From a virus (lineage: Duplodnaviria > Caudoviricetes), in the IMG/VR virus record IMGVR_UViG_3300028591_000148, positions 1 through 64,000 of that record: a DNA stretch of 64,000 nucleotides. One strand, given 5' to 3'. Positions 57,996 through 63,072 of this stretch are shown piece after piece (the stretch's first letter is position 1; every line of letters starts with the position of its first letter). The notes beneath the pieces were generated by a model. The model was not told the origin of the DNA and made no database searches. It was given only the letters and a program-made list of their open reading frames with translations. The position numbers were made by a program, and so were the translations under genes.

Positions 57996-59095
57996 TATTG
58001 ATCCTCAAGATAACTCTTAATAGAGTTTATAGATTCATCTGCGAAATTATAGAGAATATCAAGTTCCTGTGCCAATGTGTCTAGCTGTCTCATTCTTAAT
58101 TTTACAGCTTGTTTTACCATGGACATGAATCGTTTCATAAGTTTCTTTCTGGCAATGCGCTCACCCATATCCTCATTATAAGCATCACCATTCTTGCAAA
58201 TGGTTTTAGAAGTTATGATATAGATACCTTTATGTCTGTTAAGAAACAAATCTCCAAATTCGTACACAATAATTTCGGGTACGTTATCATAACATATTTT
58301 TGCCTGTGCTACGGTAATATCTCCGTAGTGCTTGAATGTAATGTCCAATGGGTCGCCTTTAAATTTTTTCATGTGTGTTTTTCCTCCTACAATATTCTTC
58401 ACAATCTTCTTGTGTTATATAAAAAACATCTGAGCAAGGTAATTCCAGATGTTCTTCACTAAATTTATCGTATATATTCGTTTCTCTAATGGATAAGAAC
58501 GAATCATTATAAGTACAATCATAAAATATAACATTATTTTGAATAGACATATTAGTAACAATAATTTCTTCCGTTTTATAATTGGATTTATATTCTCTAC
58601 AGCTACACAGTTTATAGGAAACAGAGAAAGAATTATCAACTAATACTAATCCATCTTTATTACATTTATTACATTTCTTAGAACGTACATATTGTATCAT
58701 GGGTCGATAAATAGTACACAGTCTAAACTTATTAAGAGATGTACTAGGTTTATCTACCTCGGCAAGTTTATTCTTATAATCAGAAACTTCTTTTCTTAAT
58801 GAGTCTATATAGTTTAGAATACCAATTTTTGTCTCAATATCCTCTTGTAAATAATCTCTTGGATTCATTCATTTCCCCTTCTTAACATAATTTTGGGAAC
58901 CTCCCTCATATACGAAAAATATACAAGGGAGGCTGGAACTTTCGTACCATTCACCGGAGGTGTTGTTCCCACAGGAAGTTCTAGGATAGGAGGTCGAGAA
59001 CCCATGGACAAAAAATGGCATTCTTCTAGAATCTAAACTTTTGAACTTCCAAGCGATCTAGATTCTACTCGACATGACCCAACAAAGCTGGGTGT

Positions 59096-59171
59096 TGGTG
59101 TCCCGGAACAGAATCGAACTGTTGACACGGGGATTTTCAGTCCCCTGCTCTACCATCTGAGCTACCGAGAC
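59096..59171 (-). tRNA. tRNA-Phe(GAA), CCA encoded
   Basis: Cloverleaf read by hand; anticodon loop CTGAAAA. Confidence 0.95.
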
Positions 59172-59177
59172 AAATAA

Positions 59178-59261
59178 CGGAAGGAGAGGGACTCGAACCC
59201 TCGCACCTTACGGTCTAACGGTTTAGCAAACCGTCCCCTTCACCAGCTTGGGTATCCTTCC
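59178..59261 (-). tRNA. tRNA-Ser(GCT)
   Basis: Loop TTGCTAA; long variable arm. Confidence 0.95.
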
Positions 59262-59265
59262 TAAA

Positions 59266-59337
59266 AGTGGATGAAGGGAATTGAACCCTCATTACCTGCT
59301 TGGAAGGCAGGAGTCTTAACCATTCGACGACATCCAC
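59266..59337 (-). tRNA. tRNA-Gly(TCC)
   Basis: Loop CTTCCAA. Confidence 0.9.
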
Positions 59338-59341
59338 AAAG

Positions 59342-59415
59342 TCCTCACAGTAGGACTCGAACCTGCGACCTACCGCTTAGAAGGCGGTTGCTCTATCCAA
59401 CTGAGCTATGTGAGG
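59342..59415 (-). tRNA. tRNA-Arg(TCT)
   Basis: Loop CTTCTAA. Confidence 0.95.
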
Positions 59416-59418
59416 AGA

Positions 59419-59829
59419 TTAACTACAATTATGACAAGTGTAATGACTACCATCGATAAATAATTGTCCAGACCAATTTGTATGAACATTAGGTAAATAT
59501 AATCTAAATGTATCGATTATCATTTCTTTTATTATAGATGTATTTATACACTTATCCATATAAACATTTGATTCGTATATAACTGTTCCATTCACTTGTT
59601 TATGGGGTAGTACCTCAACTCTTCCTCTCGGAAAATAGTCATAAGGAACAGATTTACCATTTACGATACATTCGTTTTTTAATGTTTCCCAAGATTTCTT
59701 GTGAAGTAAGTTTGTCATAAAATATGGATCATTAGGATCAACTGGATCTGTTAATGCTACTAGTTCGTTATCTATAACCCAAAATATTCCTTCACAAGGA
59801 ACTTGTAGACTTTCATAAACCATCATCAT
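59419..59829 (-). CDS. hypothetical protein inside the tRNA cluster, paralog of 488..916
   Basis: GIFW, HKKSW, YDYFPRGRVE, DGSHYTC. Confidence 0.8.
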   Translation of the reverse strand: MMMVYESLQVPCEGIFWVIDNELVALTDPVDPNDPYFMTNLLHKKSWETLKNECIVNGKSVPYDYFPRGRVEVLPHKQVNGTVIYESNVYMDKCINTSIIKEMIIDTFRLYLPNVHTNWSGQLFIDGSHYTCHNCS

Positions 59830-59934
59830 TTATCATCCTTATTCATAATACAGCAAGAATATAGAATTAATGTCATGAATACAGCTACAAATAAAATAAC
59901 TTTCATATATTATTCCTCCTTTATGGAGAAGAAA

Positions 59935-60018
59935 TGGAAGAGATTGGATTCGAACCAATGAAGCACATAGGCAACAGATTTACAGTCTGCCCCCTTTGAC
60001 CAACTCGGGAACTCTTCC
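59935..60018 (-). tRNA. tRNA-Tyr(GTA)
   Basis: Loop CTGTAAA; long variable arm. Confidence 0.95.
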
Positions 60019-60031
60019 AAATTATATTTAA

Positions 60032-60164
60032 TGCCGGGTGAGTAGTTTCAACCTCACGCATTCCCGTCCAGAGTTACATAACCTTTTTAACGGAGTTGGT
60101 CCTCCGAATGTTCTGTCGTAGGGACTGTATTTTCTTTTCGACTTTTAATGCTTGTCTACCGACA
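60032..60164 (-). ncRNA. putative structured RNA with tRNA-like ends and a central pseudoknot
   Basis: Nested helices TGTCGG/CCGGCA, GCATT/AATGC, GTCC/GGAC, CAGA/TCTG, ACAT/ATGT; T-arm-like GTGAG/CTCAC. Confidence 0.55.
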
Positions 60165-60174
60165 ATAAATATAA

Positions 60175-60249
60175 TGACCCTAACGGGATTCGAACCCATG
60201 TTTTCAGAATGAAAATCTGACGTCCTAGACCAGACTAGACGATAGGGCC
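60175..60249 (-). tRNA. tRNA-Glu(TTC)
   Basis: Loop TTTTCAT. Confidence 0.9.
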
Positions 60250-60251
60250 GG

Positions 60252-60339
60252 TGGTTGTCGTGGCTGGATTCGAACCAGCGTAAAGCACATACTGCTGGCG
60301 GAGTCAAAGTCCGCTGCCTTTCCACTTGGCGACACGACA
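60252..60339 (-). tRNA. tRNA-Gln(TTG) with an atypical long variable arm, CCA encoded
   Basis: Loop CTTTGAC, U1-A72, 18-nt variable region. Confidence 0.9.
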
Positions 60340-60347
60340 ATAACGAA

Positions 60348-60429
60348 TACTACCTGTGGGACTTGAACCCACATTCCTTTCGGAACTGGTTTTTGAGACC
60401 AGTGCGTATGCCAATTCCGCCAAGGTAGT
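60348..60429 (-). tRNA. tRNA-Leu(CAA)
   Basis: Loop CTCAAAA. Confidence 0.95.
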
Positions 60430-60439
60430 AGTATAAGAA

Positions 60440-60514
60440 TCGGAATGACAGGATTTGAACCTGCGACATCCTGCTCCCAAAGCAGGTGATCTAGCCAAAC
60501 TGATCTACATTCCG
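60440..60514 (-). tRNA. tRNA-Pro(TGG)
   Basis: Loop TTTGGGA. Confidence 0.95.
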
Positions 60515-60741
60515 AAATGTCACTAAACATTTCTATTCAGTGACATCTAGACTACTTTTCTTATGTAGTCTACAGAACCCTTATTCAGCTTAAGAATATC
60601 CTATTAGGGTGTGTCCATCAACTAGTTGAACAAATCAACTTTTTTAGTTTACTCTACTTTATGGACAAACAATCTTGGTTTTCGATTGCTACATCTAATC
60701 CTGATATTCTAGGATTTTGATGTATTTCAAGTAAACTATAA

Positions 60742-60825
60742 TGCTGCTGACCGGACTTGAACCGGTACGGTGTATCCACCGAGAGATTTTAAGTCTCTTG
60801 CGTCTGCCGATTTCGCCACAGCAGC
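60742..60825 (-). tRNA. tRNA-Leu(TAA)
   Basis: Loop CTTAAAA. Confidence 0.95.
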
Positions 60826-60833
60826 AAATATTA

Positions 60834-60905
60834 AGACAAGGGTGAGATTCGAACTCACGATCGTGGTGTTGCAGACCACTGTCTTAACCTCTTGACTACC
60901 TTGTC
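60834..60905 (-). tRNA. tRNA-Cys(GCA)
   Basis: Loop CTGCAAC, U73. Confidence 0.95.
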
Positions 60906-60980
60906 GTTATGTGAATCTGTTTTGTATGTACGCCGATAATCGTTCTTTCAAAATTATTCGTGTAACAGATTCACATAAAA

Positions 60981-61053
60981 TGGGATTGGACAGGATTCGA
61001 ACCTGCGATCTGGGCTTTGTGTGCCCTTGCCTTACCCACTTGGCTACAATCCC
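60981..61053 (-). tRNA. tRNA-like gene with aberrant anticodon loop (ACACAAA), identity undetermined
   Basis: Intact acceptor, D and T arms; no U33; A27-A43 mismatch. Confidence 0.75.
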
Positions 61054-61272
61054 TAGTGGAACACCAGTACCTCTCCCTTTCGACCGATGTATTAACGAAC
61101 TCCACCTAAATCCGTCCTGTAAGACCTAGTACAGGAAATATCATTTAAATATAACAGGCGTCCCTGCTTCCTATTTAACCCATAAGTGGAGTAAGGTTTT
61201 ACTGCTTACCTTCAAACATCGTCATCTAGGTCCGGATCCTAAATGATTCCAGGTAACTAGGATTACCCTTGA

Positions 61273-61345
61273 AGCTGGATGACGGACTCGAACCCCCGAC
61301 CTGCTGATTACAAATCAGCTGCTCTACCAACTGAGCTAATCCAGC
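61273..61345 (-). tRNA. tRNA-Thr(TGT)
   Basis: Loop TTTGTAA. Confidence 0.95.
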
Positions 61346-61544
61346 AAAGTGTCTGTCTATCCAGACTGTCATAAGGCACTGCCACTTATGTTACCGTCTA
61401 CCGTAAGCCTTATTCCCCTCTCGACGACCATTAACGGAGTGGTCCATTCCGGATGTCTTGTTAAGGTACAAACTCTTAAACCTTACTTTCTCAAGGTTAT
61501 TTTATAGAACCGTTTGATATAAGTAATAAACCTTTCAGTTCTTT

Positions 61545-61620
61545 TGGCTCCCGTAGACAGACTCGAACTGCCGACTTGATCATTAACAGTGACCCGTTCT
61601 ACCAACTGAACTATACGGGA
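61545..61620 (-). tRNA. tRNA-Asn(GTT), CCA encoded
   Basis: Loop CTGTTAA. Confidence 0.95.
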
Positions 61621-61624
61621 ATGA

Positions 61625-61701
61625 TAGGAACCCGGGGACTCGAACCCCGACAAAGACATGGCTTATAAGGCCACCGCTCTCACCGGTTGAGCTAGGCTCC
61701 C
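61625..61701 (-). tRNA. tRNA-Ile(TAT)
   Basis: Loop CTTATAA, A73. Confidence 0.85.
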
Positions 61702-61723
61702 ATATAATATGTGTTATATTTAT

Positions 61724-61752
61724 ATAATAACACATATTGCATTAAAAGTCAA
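61724..61752 (-). promoter_or_regulatory. promoter for the tRNA/ncRNA operon
   Basis: TTGACT(61752-61747)-17-TATTAT with extended TG, ~20 nt upstream of tRNA-Ile. Confidence 0.75.
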
Positions 61753-61769
61753 GTAGTTTATAAAAGATT

Positions 61770-62135
61770 ATGATTACAAAGCAGCCACGAGGAAACCTAT
61801 ACGGTCATGAGATTAACCCGTAAACCTTTTACCGTGGATTTTGTAAAACCTTATACTTTTCTCTTTACGTTTTAACCTTTATATGTAACTAATATTTGAT
61901 GTTTAAGGTTTTAACTTTGAGCTATAATCTTTAAACTTTCTAGCTGAATGAAGTGGATTCGAACCACGACTGGATTGGTAGTCCAGTGCTTTCCAAATTA
62001 TATAACTCTCAACCAAAGAAAGTTTGAAAGTTCTTTAAAATCTCAATTATTGGCGAGATCTTCAAGAATATATAGCTCTCTATTAACGCTTAGAGAATAA
62101 CGAATCTCAATTTATAGTTTTCGCTTTGCAATCAC
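61770..62135 (-). ncRNA. putative ~365-nt structured RNA with a heptamer array and an embedded tRNA-like domain
   Basis: Terminal stem TGATTGCAAAGC(62134-62123)/GCTTTGTAATCA(61782-61771); several internal helices; no plausible ORF. Confidence 0.7.
61846..61939 (-). repeat. twelve degenerate 7-nt repeats, AAA-N-N-Y-Y-like, as 7+5 units
   Basis: AAAGTTT AAAGATT ATAGCTC AAAGTTA AAACCTT AAACATC AAATATT [10 nt] AAAGGTT AAAACGT AAAGAGA AAAGTAT AAGGTTT. Confidence 0.75.
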
Positions 62136-62149
62136 AACCCCAAACTCAA

Positions 62150-62800
62150 TTAACACTCAAACTCAATTATAGTTACCGCGTTAGATGTAGAAAGTGCTGC
62201 ATCAACTTTCGTATTATAGAAATCAAGTTCGTTTTTGAGTTCTTCAATCTTTTCTTTAAGATTGTTAGGATCAAGCAAGTCCGTTGTGTTAGCGGCAATA
62301 TAAGCATCCCTGCTTGTCTTAACAATGGTACCATCAATACCTTCCTTATTACCAAACAGACTTGTGACATATCTGTCAGCAAGGTCTTCAATGGCACTAT
62401 TGTTATTATTCACTCTGTTAATAGCAGTTTTAAATTGATTAGCGAGTGTTTTTACTAACTTCTCAACAAATGTAAGACCGACATTCTTGTACTCAATAAG
62501 TTCGGCAACTGTCATAGTAATGGTAGTTCCGTTTTCTTTAGTAAGTGTAACAGGTGTTACAGCATTACTCTTTGTGATAGCCTTCTTAATGGCATTTCTG
62601 CGTTTAATAAGGTCTTCAACCTTTTGCAATGCGGACTTCATGGACTGGTTATATTCCTCAATACTTTTACCCTCAATCTTTGTGTTTGCGTGTTTGTTAC
62701 AATTAATAAACACATTGGAGTCCAATTCCTTTTCAATTCTTTCCGCCAGAACTTTAAGTTCAGCCAGACCTTCGTGAACGGTCATTGAATACTTTGTCAT
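62150..62800 (-). CDS. helical/coiled-coil protein (MTVHEGLAELK...LSTSNAVT)
   Basis: ORF track; RBS GGAGG; internal pseudo-repeat (MTVHE/MTVAE, KSNAVT/TSNAVT); a DIP1984-like fold is possible but unverified. Confidence 0.85.
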   Translation of the reverse strand: MTKYSMTVHEGLAELKVLAERIEKELDSNVFINCNKHANTKIEGKSIEEYNQSMKSALQKVEDLIKRRNAIKKAITKSNAVTPVTLTKENGTTITMTVAELIEYKNVGLTFVEKLVKTLANQFKTAINRVNNNNSAIEDLADRYVTSLFGNKEGIDGTIVKTSRDAYIAANTTDLLDPNNLKEKIEELKNELDFYNTKVDAALSTSNAVTIIEFEC

Positions 62801-62844
62801 AATAGTCTTCCTCCATGAAATTTAAGATTTTATATTAATTGATA

Positions 62845-62917
62845 TGGGCATTAGCGGATTCGAACCGCTGACTTTCTCCTTAAAAGGGAGTTACTCTACC
62901 AACTGAGTTAAATGCCC
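62845..62917 (-). tRNA. tRNA-Lys(TTT)
   Basis: Loop CTTTTAA. Confidence 0.95.
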
Positions 62918-63043
62918 CTATACAACCTTTAAAACCCTACATCGTAGGTAAAACTTGGTTGAATTTAGTTTTATTAAAGGAGAATGGAATGAGATGGACA
63001 GTCGTTTTTTATTTCCTTTATCACTATCCGTGTTTACAAACAT

Positions 63044-63072
63044 ATTATAACACATTATTCAGATATTGTCAA
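63044..63072 (-). promoter_or_regulatory. consensus promoter for the tRNA-Lys / 216-aa protein / ncRNA unit
   Basis: TTGACA(63072-63067)-17-TATAAT(63049-63044). Confidence 0.85.

Follow-up and report, generated by a model that had tools for sequence, protein, structure and literature searches.

Does the non-coding stretch behind a 216-amino-acid (aa) open reading frame (ORF) in the tRNA cluster of a Caudoviricetes virus encode an RNA of its own, and does this RNA work with the protein encoded just upstream? The stretch lies in a window of 64,000 nucleotides (nt), positions 1 to 64,000 of IMG/VR virus record IMGVR_UViG_3300028591_000148, which has 93,238 bases and is estimated to be 65% complete; all coordinates below are window positions unless a locus is named. 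An original prediction, made from the letters of the window, had proposed a candidate new ribonucleoprotein system composed of a helical protein, oligomeric or filament-forming, and an RNA with a 7-nt repeat track, in which each subunit would bind one heptamer. Its observation is confirmed here and its ribonucleoprotein interpretation is partly supported: the RNA is structured and conserved, is present in RNA libraries, and is strictly co-inherited, in one unit, with the upstream gene, a member of the T5.085 family.

A knotted RNA in the tRNA-Lys unit

Positions 59,000-63,000 are occupied by a minus-strand tRNA cluster (16 ARAGORN calls) that is interrupted by strong sigma-70-type promoters. 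The unit in question and the promoter that follows it are arranged as listed here.

63044..63072, minus strand: sigma-70-type promoter of the unit, TTGACA-17-TATAAT with TG, 12/12 consensus matches, ahead of tRNA-Lys
62845..62917, minus strand: tRNA-Lys(UUU), leading gene of the unit (ARAGORN; Rfam tRNA 71.3 bits)
62150..62800, minus strand: ORF of the 216-aa helical protein, phrog_1491 / T5.085 family, predicted homodimer (profile expectation value (E) 1.9e-47; predicted local distance difference test (pLDDT) 81; interface score ipSAE 0.70)
61769..62136, minus strand: structured non-coding RNA, about 368 nt between the outer pairs of stem P1 (fold, covariation, R1 model, RNA-library contigs)
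61724..61752, minus strand: promoter of the following tRNA unit, 10/12 with TG, beginning 17 nt past the P1 end

The RNA is transcribed from the tRNA-Lys promoter jointly with the upstream gene, as one transcription unit. From the 63072 promoter to the RNA 3' end, no promoter-like site above 9/12 and no terminator-like site is found on the unit's strand, and the RNA stretch itself is free of ORFs, with 7-11 stop codons per frame in the three frames. Both the consensus promoter shared with tRNA-Lys and the end of the unit ahead of the next promoter (61752-61724) had been correctly foreseen. Within the RNA the following elements can be distinguished.

62122..62136, minus strand: 5' strand of the closing stem P1, TGTGATTGCAAAGCG, starting 15 nt past the ORF stop
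61769..61783, minus strand: 3' strand of P1, pairing with 62136-62122
62110..62123, minus strand: conserved junction CGAAAAC-UAUAAAU (family consensus CGAAAAC-CUUAAAC), with invariant G17, A19 and A20; aligns to positions 13-26 of the Rfam model RAGATH-27
62103..62109, minus strand: 5' strand TGAGATT of the long-range pseudoknot PK-A, complementary to AATCTCA at 61814-61808
61808..61814, minus strand: 3' strand AATCTCA of PK-A, in the loop of the 3'-domain hairpin (covariation across the family)
62076..62097, minus strand: hairpin P2, TCTCTA/TAGAGA, displaced in the window copy relative to the family alignment
62031..62067, minus strand: lineage-specific hairpin opening the variable region, present in the minimum-free-energy fold and unconserved in alignment A2
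61945..62008, minus strand: degenerate tRNA-like element in the variable region, with T arm and anticodon arm retained and D stem lost
61890..61940, minus strand: heptamer array 1, seven unpaired units of consensus AAAG-n-U-n (column statistics, pairing search)
61849..61882, minus strand: heptamer array 2, five unpaired units (column statistics, pairing search)
61785..61841, minus strand: 3' domain, consisting of AAAUCC, P3 (CCACG/CGTGG), P3a, hairpin P3b and GGCUG (covariation, model R1)

The single-sequence fold of the RNA reaches -101.9 kcal/mol against -71.3 +/- 5.1 for 100 shuffles (z -6.0). The original prediction had placed a structured segment with pairing ends 15 nt past the ORF, and these ends are found at 62136-62122 and 61783-61769; the two hairpins that it named are likewise present, TCTCTA/TAGAGA at 62097-62076 and the second at 62067-62031, and the strands of P3 lie at 61837-61833 (CCACG) and 61789-61785 (CGTGG). 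Its tRNA-like domain exists at 61945-62008 but is degenerate, scoring 17.9 bits (E 0.53) against an Rfam tRNA cut-off of 29 bits and receiving no ARAGORN call.

Relatives of the locus comprised 80 loci from IMG/VR, obtained by an alignment-based scan (proteins 39-47% identical), and three phage records. A scan of viral contigs with the single protein returned no relative, whereas the alignment-based scan did, and a blastn search of the RNA against the phage collection gave no match, a result that is uninformative because of the low-complexity filter and the sequence divergence. The regions downstream of the gene share about 70-79% nucleotide identity with the window over roughly 120 nt, which exceeds the identity of the proteins. 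In 84 regions the RNA starts 10-65 nt past the stop codon, and the 47 distinct sequences are 302-457 nt long. Helices were counted in A2, an alignment of 24 non-redundant RNAs, which contains 41 base pairs in six helices; 93.8% of them are paired, as against 36-43% when the partners are slid, 35 pairs show compensatory changes, and none of 500 shuffles attains any of the observed helix measures. P1 contributes 15 pairs, 12 of them with compensatory change (98.3% paired), and P2 eight pairs, all eight with compensatory change in the family. PK-A, which joins the segment after CUUAAAC to the hairpin loop in the 3' domain, has seven pairs (91.3% paired); it had been proposed together with the 3' domain from one sequence, as a pairing of the loop AATCTCA with TGAGATT, and every one of its pairs turns out to be compensatory. 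The remaining three helices belong to the 3' domain.

The heptamers align as 7 + 5 units without insertions or deletions, with the consensus AAAG-n-U-n, and the autocorrelation of A frequency within the arrays is 0.92 at lag 7 and 0.91 at lag 14. The twelve phased A-rich heptamers called from the window are therefore conserved in number and phase, and they are unpaired: on searching, neither the 5' junction, nor the linker, nor the other array offers them a firm conserved partner, the only candidate being a weak set of four pairs with little covariation (A2 columns 365-368 with 556-559). In the aligned relatives, terminal stem, 3' domain and 7-nt periodicity are all kept downstream of the gene, which is the comparison that the original prediction had named as its check. 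Two phage loci, L005 and L022, have true tRNAs in the variable region, L002 has a tRNA-like element there, and the degenerate element of the window sits at this same site. The window carries the whole set of features that defines the full-length family, that is P1, PK-A, the 7 + 5 heptamers and the AAAUCC...GGCUG 3' domain.

The stretch was found in three RNA-library runs from two ruminant-gut studies. Two contigs of 315 nt (61817-62131) and 324 nt (61802-62125), 100% identical to the window, lie wholly inside the RNA with depths of 8.7 and 6.4, and contigs of the ORF have depths of 2.7 and 3.3, one of them spanning the ORF end and the RNA start (62106-62326). A further contig of 154 nt comes from a size-fractionated bovine library of the second study. 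The tRNA-Lys gene, the flanks and the middle of the ORF are uncovered, a gap that is not evidence of absence.

Part of this RNA has a name. The first 84-88 nt of the relatives correspond to RAGATH-27 (RF03100), an orphan candidate small RNA of 86 positions in Rfam, with scores of 94.7 (L056), 90.3 (L037) and 77.2 bits (L001) above the cut-off of 76.1, and of 47.1 (L065) and 40.6 bits (L007) below it. The window copy (62052-62135, minus strand) scores 19.9 bits (E 3), below the 76.1-bit gathering score, and an Rfam scan of the window at E <= 1 gave no match at the RNA. It carries GCGAAAACUAUAAAU at model positions 12-26, where the conserved 5' sequence of RAGATH-27 is CGAAAACUUuAAAC; in A2, too, this segment of the window lines up with the family. 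Against the RAGATH-27 stem, cmscan flags non-standard pairs in the window. The single stem of the model is a pseudoknot (PK-B) between the P2 loop and a segment downstream, after an A-rich linker, while the first 46 positions, which it leaves unpaired, are the P1 strand, the CGAAAAC junction and the PK-A strand. RAGATH-27 is hence the same as the 5' domain of the full-length RNA, but it ends at about 86 nt, whereas the full RNA runs 220-370 nt further through the variable region, the two arrays and the 3' domain, which pairs back to the 5' end beyond the reach of the model. Judged from its sequence, the segment in the window is the full-length form of an orphan phage RNA that is catalogued only as its front part.

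In the searchable literature, which leaves out supplements, neither a paper bearing the name RAGATH-27 nor a protein partner was found for it, and the full-length RNA with its protein partner was not found there either. The claim of the original prediction that the pair matches no described system has to be amended for the 5' 86 nt of the relatives, and within this literature it stands for the full-length pair. Fremin et al. 2023 (PMC10690425) list some 10,000 candidate viral RNAs in supplements, and the RNA may be among them. Known large RNAs were also considered for the window copy. A tmRNA was rejected, with no ARAGORN tmRNA call in the window and no Rfam match, and none of tmRNA, RNase P RNA, Y RNA/Ro, 6S RNA and retron RNA, all weighed by anatomy, has Rfam support. 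ROOL and GOLLD were likewise set aside: neither this stretch of the window nor any of 11 related loci matches their Rfam models at E <= 10. Other catalogued RNAs lie near the pair in relatives: RAGATH-36 (103.4 bits) and a sub-threshold twister-P1 (L007:1428-1555 and 785-839), a hammerhead II at the locus end (L001:1-47), and a drum RNA of 47.7 bits (L092:2910-3017).

Linkage of the RNA to the T5.085-family protein

The association of gene and RNA was followed in both directions. On the protein side, a closing stem with 11/12 pairs or more flanks CGAAAA...GGCTG in 74 of the 84 regions behind the gene. A covariance model of the 3' domain (R1), which has the window sequence in its seed and scores 87.9 bits (E 3.5e-13) on it, recovers all nine regions tested among the ten that fail this pattern (L006 excluded), and gives one plus-strand match downstream of the gene in 20/20 sources. 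It also matches in three further phages, including T5-like Bas26 (E 0.00098) and Clostridium phage D-1873. Isolate phages with a match at the right place and on the right strand are Dulem virus 39, Vibrio phage Pontus, BCP78, PVP-SE1 and AM4, as well as a C. difficile phage, D-1873 and Bas26; weak matches, correctly placed, occur in phiPsa374 (E 0.12), phage G (0.089) and Deimos-Minion (0.062). When whole records were scanned, 29 of 32 had exactly one R1 match at E <= 0.01, always at the gene locus, and the three misses still have weak local matches. The same holds beyond phages: a scan of bacterial genomes gave 80 loci, from gut Bacillota and many filamentous cyanobacteria, and R1 has one match downstream of the gene in 61 of the 61 loci to which it was applied (19 of the 80 left out).

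In the reverse direction, 80 IMG/VR loci were retrieved with an exact 3'-domain pattern, 57 of them with at least 1100 nt upstream, and the protein is encoded upstream in 55 of these 57. One of the two misses is a chance match within GC-rich coding DNA. In the other, L101, a 467-aa ORF (L101:767-2170) has replaced the gene beyond its first ten codons together with the 5' half of the RNA, so that the remnant keeps ten codons and the 3' half of the RNA. This ORF contains repeated zinc-ribbon-like CxxC motifs, and is perhaps a homing endonuclease.

The 216-aa ORF matches phrog_1491 over residues 5-215, on profile positions 4-210 of 211 (E 1.9e-47), and the record note of its homologue in PVP-SE1 names T5.085. 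By tblastn, the window protein finds 265 phage records, the PVP-SE1 homologue finds 749 of 50,697 records, T5-like phages included, and a profile search finds 3223 cluster representatives at E <= 0.001. The 'tail fiber' label of phrog_1491 was rejected, as the protein has no fibre-like fold and is not encoded in a structural module; the label is not credible given the tRNA and early-region genes around it, the 'hypothetical protein' of the original GenBank entries and the helical-bundle model. The AlphaFold model, which is confident (pLDDT 81), is a helical bundle that includes small sheets. A symmetric homodimer with a large interface is predicted, with an ipSAE of 0.70 against 0.00 for the best control, at least 97% of contacts in agreement between runs and a partner pLDDT of at least 90; the ipSAE mark is reached by 20 of 30 proteins solved as one-chain pairs and by one of 23 solved single chains. 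The model supports self-association as a homodimer, in agreement with the oligomeric protein of the original prediction.

A faint likeness to alpha-xenorhabdolysin subunit A was seen (NCBIfam E 2.7e-4, 20 bits against a cut-off of 125; Foldseek E 0.044). A link to DIP1984 / DUF6847 (PF20935) appeared at the level of a lead, as a DUF6847 cluster that the Atlas lists at only 0.86; the structure 3KDQ of that family gives a Foldseek match (3kdq_C, E 0.24, template-modelling scores 0.24/0.33) and lies outside the 50 best matches of the second VIA comparison, none of 34 members of the T5.085 family matches DUF6847 at E <= 0.1, and none in its own record does at E <= 1. No paper on T5.085 was found, and nothing relevant on T5 stable RNAs or T5 RNA sequencing.

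Readings of the pair

The best explanation, which we hold with slightly more confidence than doubt, is that the full-length RAGATH-27-type RNA and the T5.085-family protein act together as a ribonucleoprotein in a tRNA or translation context. The 15-base-pair stem connects the RNA ends and PK-A links the 5' junction to the loop of the 3'-domain hairpin, and the knotted frame so formed presents the two single-stranded arrays of 7 + 5 AAAG heptamers, with the variable region housing a tRNA or, in the window, a tRNA-like remnant. Protein dimers may occupy the arrays, much as other proteins recognise short motifs set at regular intervals. The role of such a particle would concern tRNA or translation during infection or stress, since phage tRNA clusters and cyanobacterial tRNA arrays are where the pair is found.

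Oligomeric proteins that read evenly spaced short motifs on single-stranded RNA include TRAP on the trp leader, HutP on the hut mRNA and CsrA on RsmZ-type sponges. The pair may work similarly, by analogy, although it has no relation to them in sequence or fold, its unit is 7 nt, and its arrays stand in a closed, knotted scaffold RNA instead of an mRNA leader. A precedent is RAGATH-18, an orphan motif that proved to be part of a longer RNA working with a protein encoded just upstream, namely the guide RNAs of IS607 TnpB (PMC11061315). In contrast to TnpB, the protein here is without a nuclease domain in Pfam and NCBIfam, and no guide-like variable 3' end is seen in the RNA.

Several observations weigh against a ribonucleoprotein. 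The protein is mildly acidic (pI 5.86; family median 5.8), and searches of Pfam, NCBIfam and PDB sequences show no recognisable RNA-binding domain; together with PADLOC these give no informative match and no RNA-binding relative. Foldseek against the PDB has no hit at E <= 0.001 and returns generic helical bundles only, as do the VIA comparisons, in which the wide search peaks at Z 9.0, to syntaxin, and the second look is likewise generic. A dimer alone does not account for twelve heptamer sites, and in distant members, Vibrio phage Pontus for example, the heptamer sequence is degenerate. The RAGATH-27 stem (PK-B), at least 7 base pairs long in most relatives, is not evident in the window copy, where the best complement is 4 base pairs and is reached by 198 of 200 shuffles. 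R1 scores are weak for the T5-like, phage G and Agricanvirus copies. Finally, the RNA-library evidence consists of assembled contigs, which tell of presence only and not of strand, ends or level, and two of the three runs come from one sample.

In a rival reading the RNA would work alone, for example by self-assembly like ROOL or GOLLD or as a scaffold for an embedded tRNA, the protein being a co-transcribed helper such as a chaperone or processing factor, or having another target. The higher conservation of the RNA (about 70-79% nucleotide identity over roughly 120 nt against 39-47% for the proteins), its knotted and ornate architecture, and an acidic protein without RNA-binding signature all speak for this. 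PMC5737381 reports ROOL and GOLLD as large RNAs with pseudoknots and of unknown function that occur in phages and prophages and frequently adjoin tRNA genes, and the RNA described here resembles them in being a large pseudoknotted phage RNA near tRNAs that can embed one; it differs in being smaller, in its heptamer arrays, in its obligatory upstream protein gene and in matching neither of their Rfam models. The near-absolute two-way co-occurrence with fixed order and spacing across wide divergence is hard to understand without a direct functional tie, and extended single-stranded repeats under conservation are a feature of platforms for protein binding more often than of cores made of RNA alone; we consider an RNA working alone unlikely. 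Twelve conserved unpaired short motifs could also serve as a decoy or sponge, in which AAA/AAG heptamers titrate a host factor and the protein assists or protects the RNA; candidate targets would be an AU-preferring endoribonuclease, Hfq or S1, a defence nuclease directed at tRNA, or tRNA-Lys itself. The tRNA or tRNA-like piece inside the RNA fits such a decoy, and so does its placement among phage tRNA genes and in mobile cyanobacterial arrays, which are reported, in the parts consulted of PMC8421152, to aid survival under translational stress. As the hosts span Enterobacteria, Bacillota and cyanobacteria, the target would need to be universal, and the idea draws on a resemblance of motifs; a decoy aimed at any of these candidates is in our view rather less probable again than an RNA working alone. 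An untranslated region acting in cis, stabilising or autoregulating the upstream mRNA with the protein bound to its own message, has only a small chance of being correct. The close start of the RNA behind the stop codon (10-65 nt in 84 regions), the want of an intervening promoter-like site above 9/12 and the one RNA-library contig spanning ORF and RNA favour it, but a length of about 370 nt, pseudoknots, twelve repeats and a tRNA embedded within go far beyond known 3' stabilisers, the contigs confined to the RNA are deeper than those of the ORF (a weak point), and the remnant in L101 retains the 3' half of the RNA without the gene.

In type III toxin-antitoxin systems the gene of an endoribonuclease toxin is preceded by tandem repeats of about 34-45 nt. 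A harmful protein restrained by a repeat RNA in this manner would explain a gene strictly co-inherited with an adjacent repeat RNA, and the faint likeness to alpha-xenorhabdolysin subunit A would suit it; given repeats of 7 nt that lie downstream of the gene, the lack of a PADLOC match, and a pore-forming-toxin likeness far under threshold, such a system is very improbable. We give practically no weight to a DNA element, in which the heptamers would be iterons of an origin or partition site bound by the protein. Phased short repeats beside a gene for a helical protein predicted to be dimeric might suggest it, but every locus has the repeats in the same orientation to the gene and the stretch is found in RNA libraries with its flanks uncovered, and above all compensatory changes maintain helices with strands up to about 350 nt apart, which are relevant to a single strand only; this long-range covariation excludes a DNA site.

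Joint action of RNA and protein remains the reading that we prefer. A bolder form of it, which we put forward tentatively and regard as possible though doubtful, would see here a new class of ribonucleoproteins in large phages (T5 relatives, rV5-like, Bastille-like, and those of gut and rumen) and in mobile cyanobacterial tRNA arrays. In such particles a knotted scaffold RNA carrying a tRNA or its mimic would offer twelve AAAG heptamers to dimers of a new fold, acting on the tRNA and translation front of the conflict between phage and host, for example by shielding or baiting tRNA-directed nucleases.

tRNA-rich settings and significance

In the window, near-consensus extended -10 promoters recur every 0.5-1.3 kb on the minus strand (63618-63590, 63072-63044 and 61752-61724), which fits a strongly expressed early region. 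The cluster also contains a tRNA with a normal body and an odd anticodon loop (60981-61053, minus strand; ARAGORN Cys(ACA), Rfam tRNA only 41.7 bits), which adjoins a normal tRNA-Cys(GCA), and two ORF-free intergenic tRNA spacers of about 200 nt (61054-61272 and 61346-61544, minus strand) that have no Rfam match at E <= 1 and could be further structured RNAs. Among the phage relatives, Dulem virus 39 encodes an RtcB tRNA-splicing ligase about 2.4 kb downstream of the pair (L001:6580-7636); rtcB is reported near cyanobacterial tRNA arrays in the parts of PMC8421152 consulted.

Densely packed tRNA arrays surround the cyanobacterial pair, as seen in L228, L245, L246, L271, L281 and L286, and reach 18 tRNAs per 4.6 kb; in L227, L228, L230, L271, L281, L286 and L287 the gene is separated from the 3' domain by a tRNA. 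Several of these arrays have tRNAs with unusual anticodons (Asp ATC, Thr AGT, Ser AGA), a tRNA-Pyl(CTA) call is present in L273, and an ARAGORN tmRNA call in L251 (187-448), which overlaps four tRNA calls, is probably false. The setting is the same as that of the long arrays of PMC8421152, for which a benefit to survival under translational stress is reported; in the parts covered, that article reports embedded hypothetical genes, and this protein and RNA are absent from them. One of our loci comes from Dulcicalothrix desertica PCC 7102, which is equated with the 'Calothrix desertica PCC 7102' of a figure legend in that source by strain number alone.

The finding adds an unannotated knotted RNA of 300-450 nt with an obligatory protein partner to phages close to T5, as shown for T5-like Bas26, and the same pair to hundreds of other phages and to cyanobacterial tRNA arrays. 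It also assigns a pairing partner to the conserved and previously unexplained 'single-stranded' part of RAGATH-27. The pair is carried by T5-like phages of E. coli K-12, which opens its function to immediate bench testing. If the particle does act on tRNA or translation, it would be a new player in the biology of phage tRNA clusters, in tRNA-directed defence and in counter-defence.

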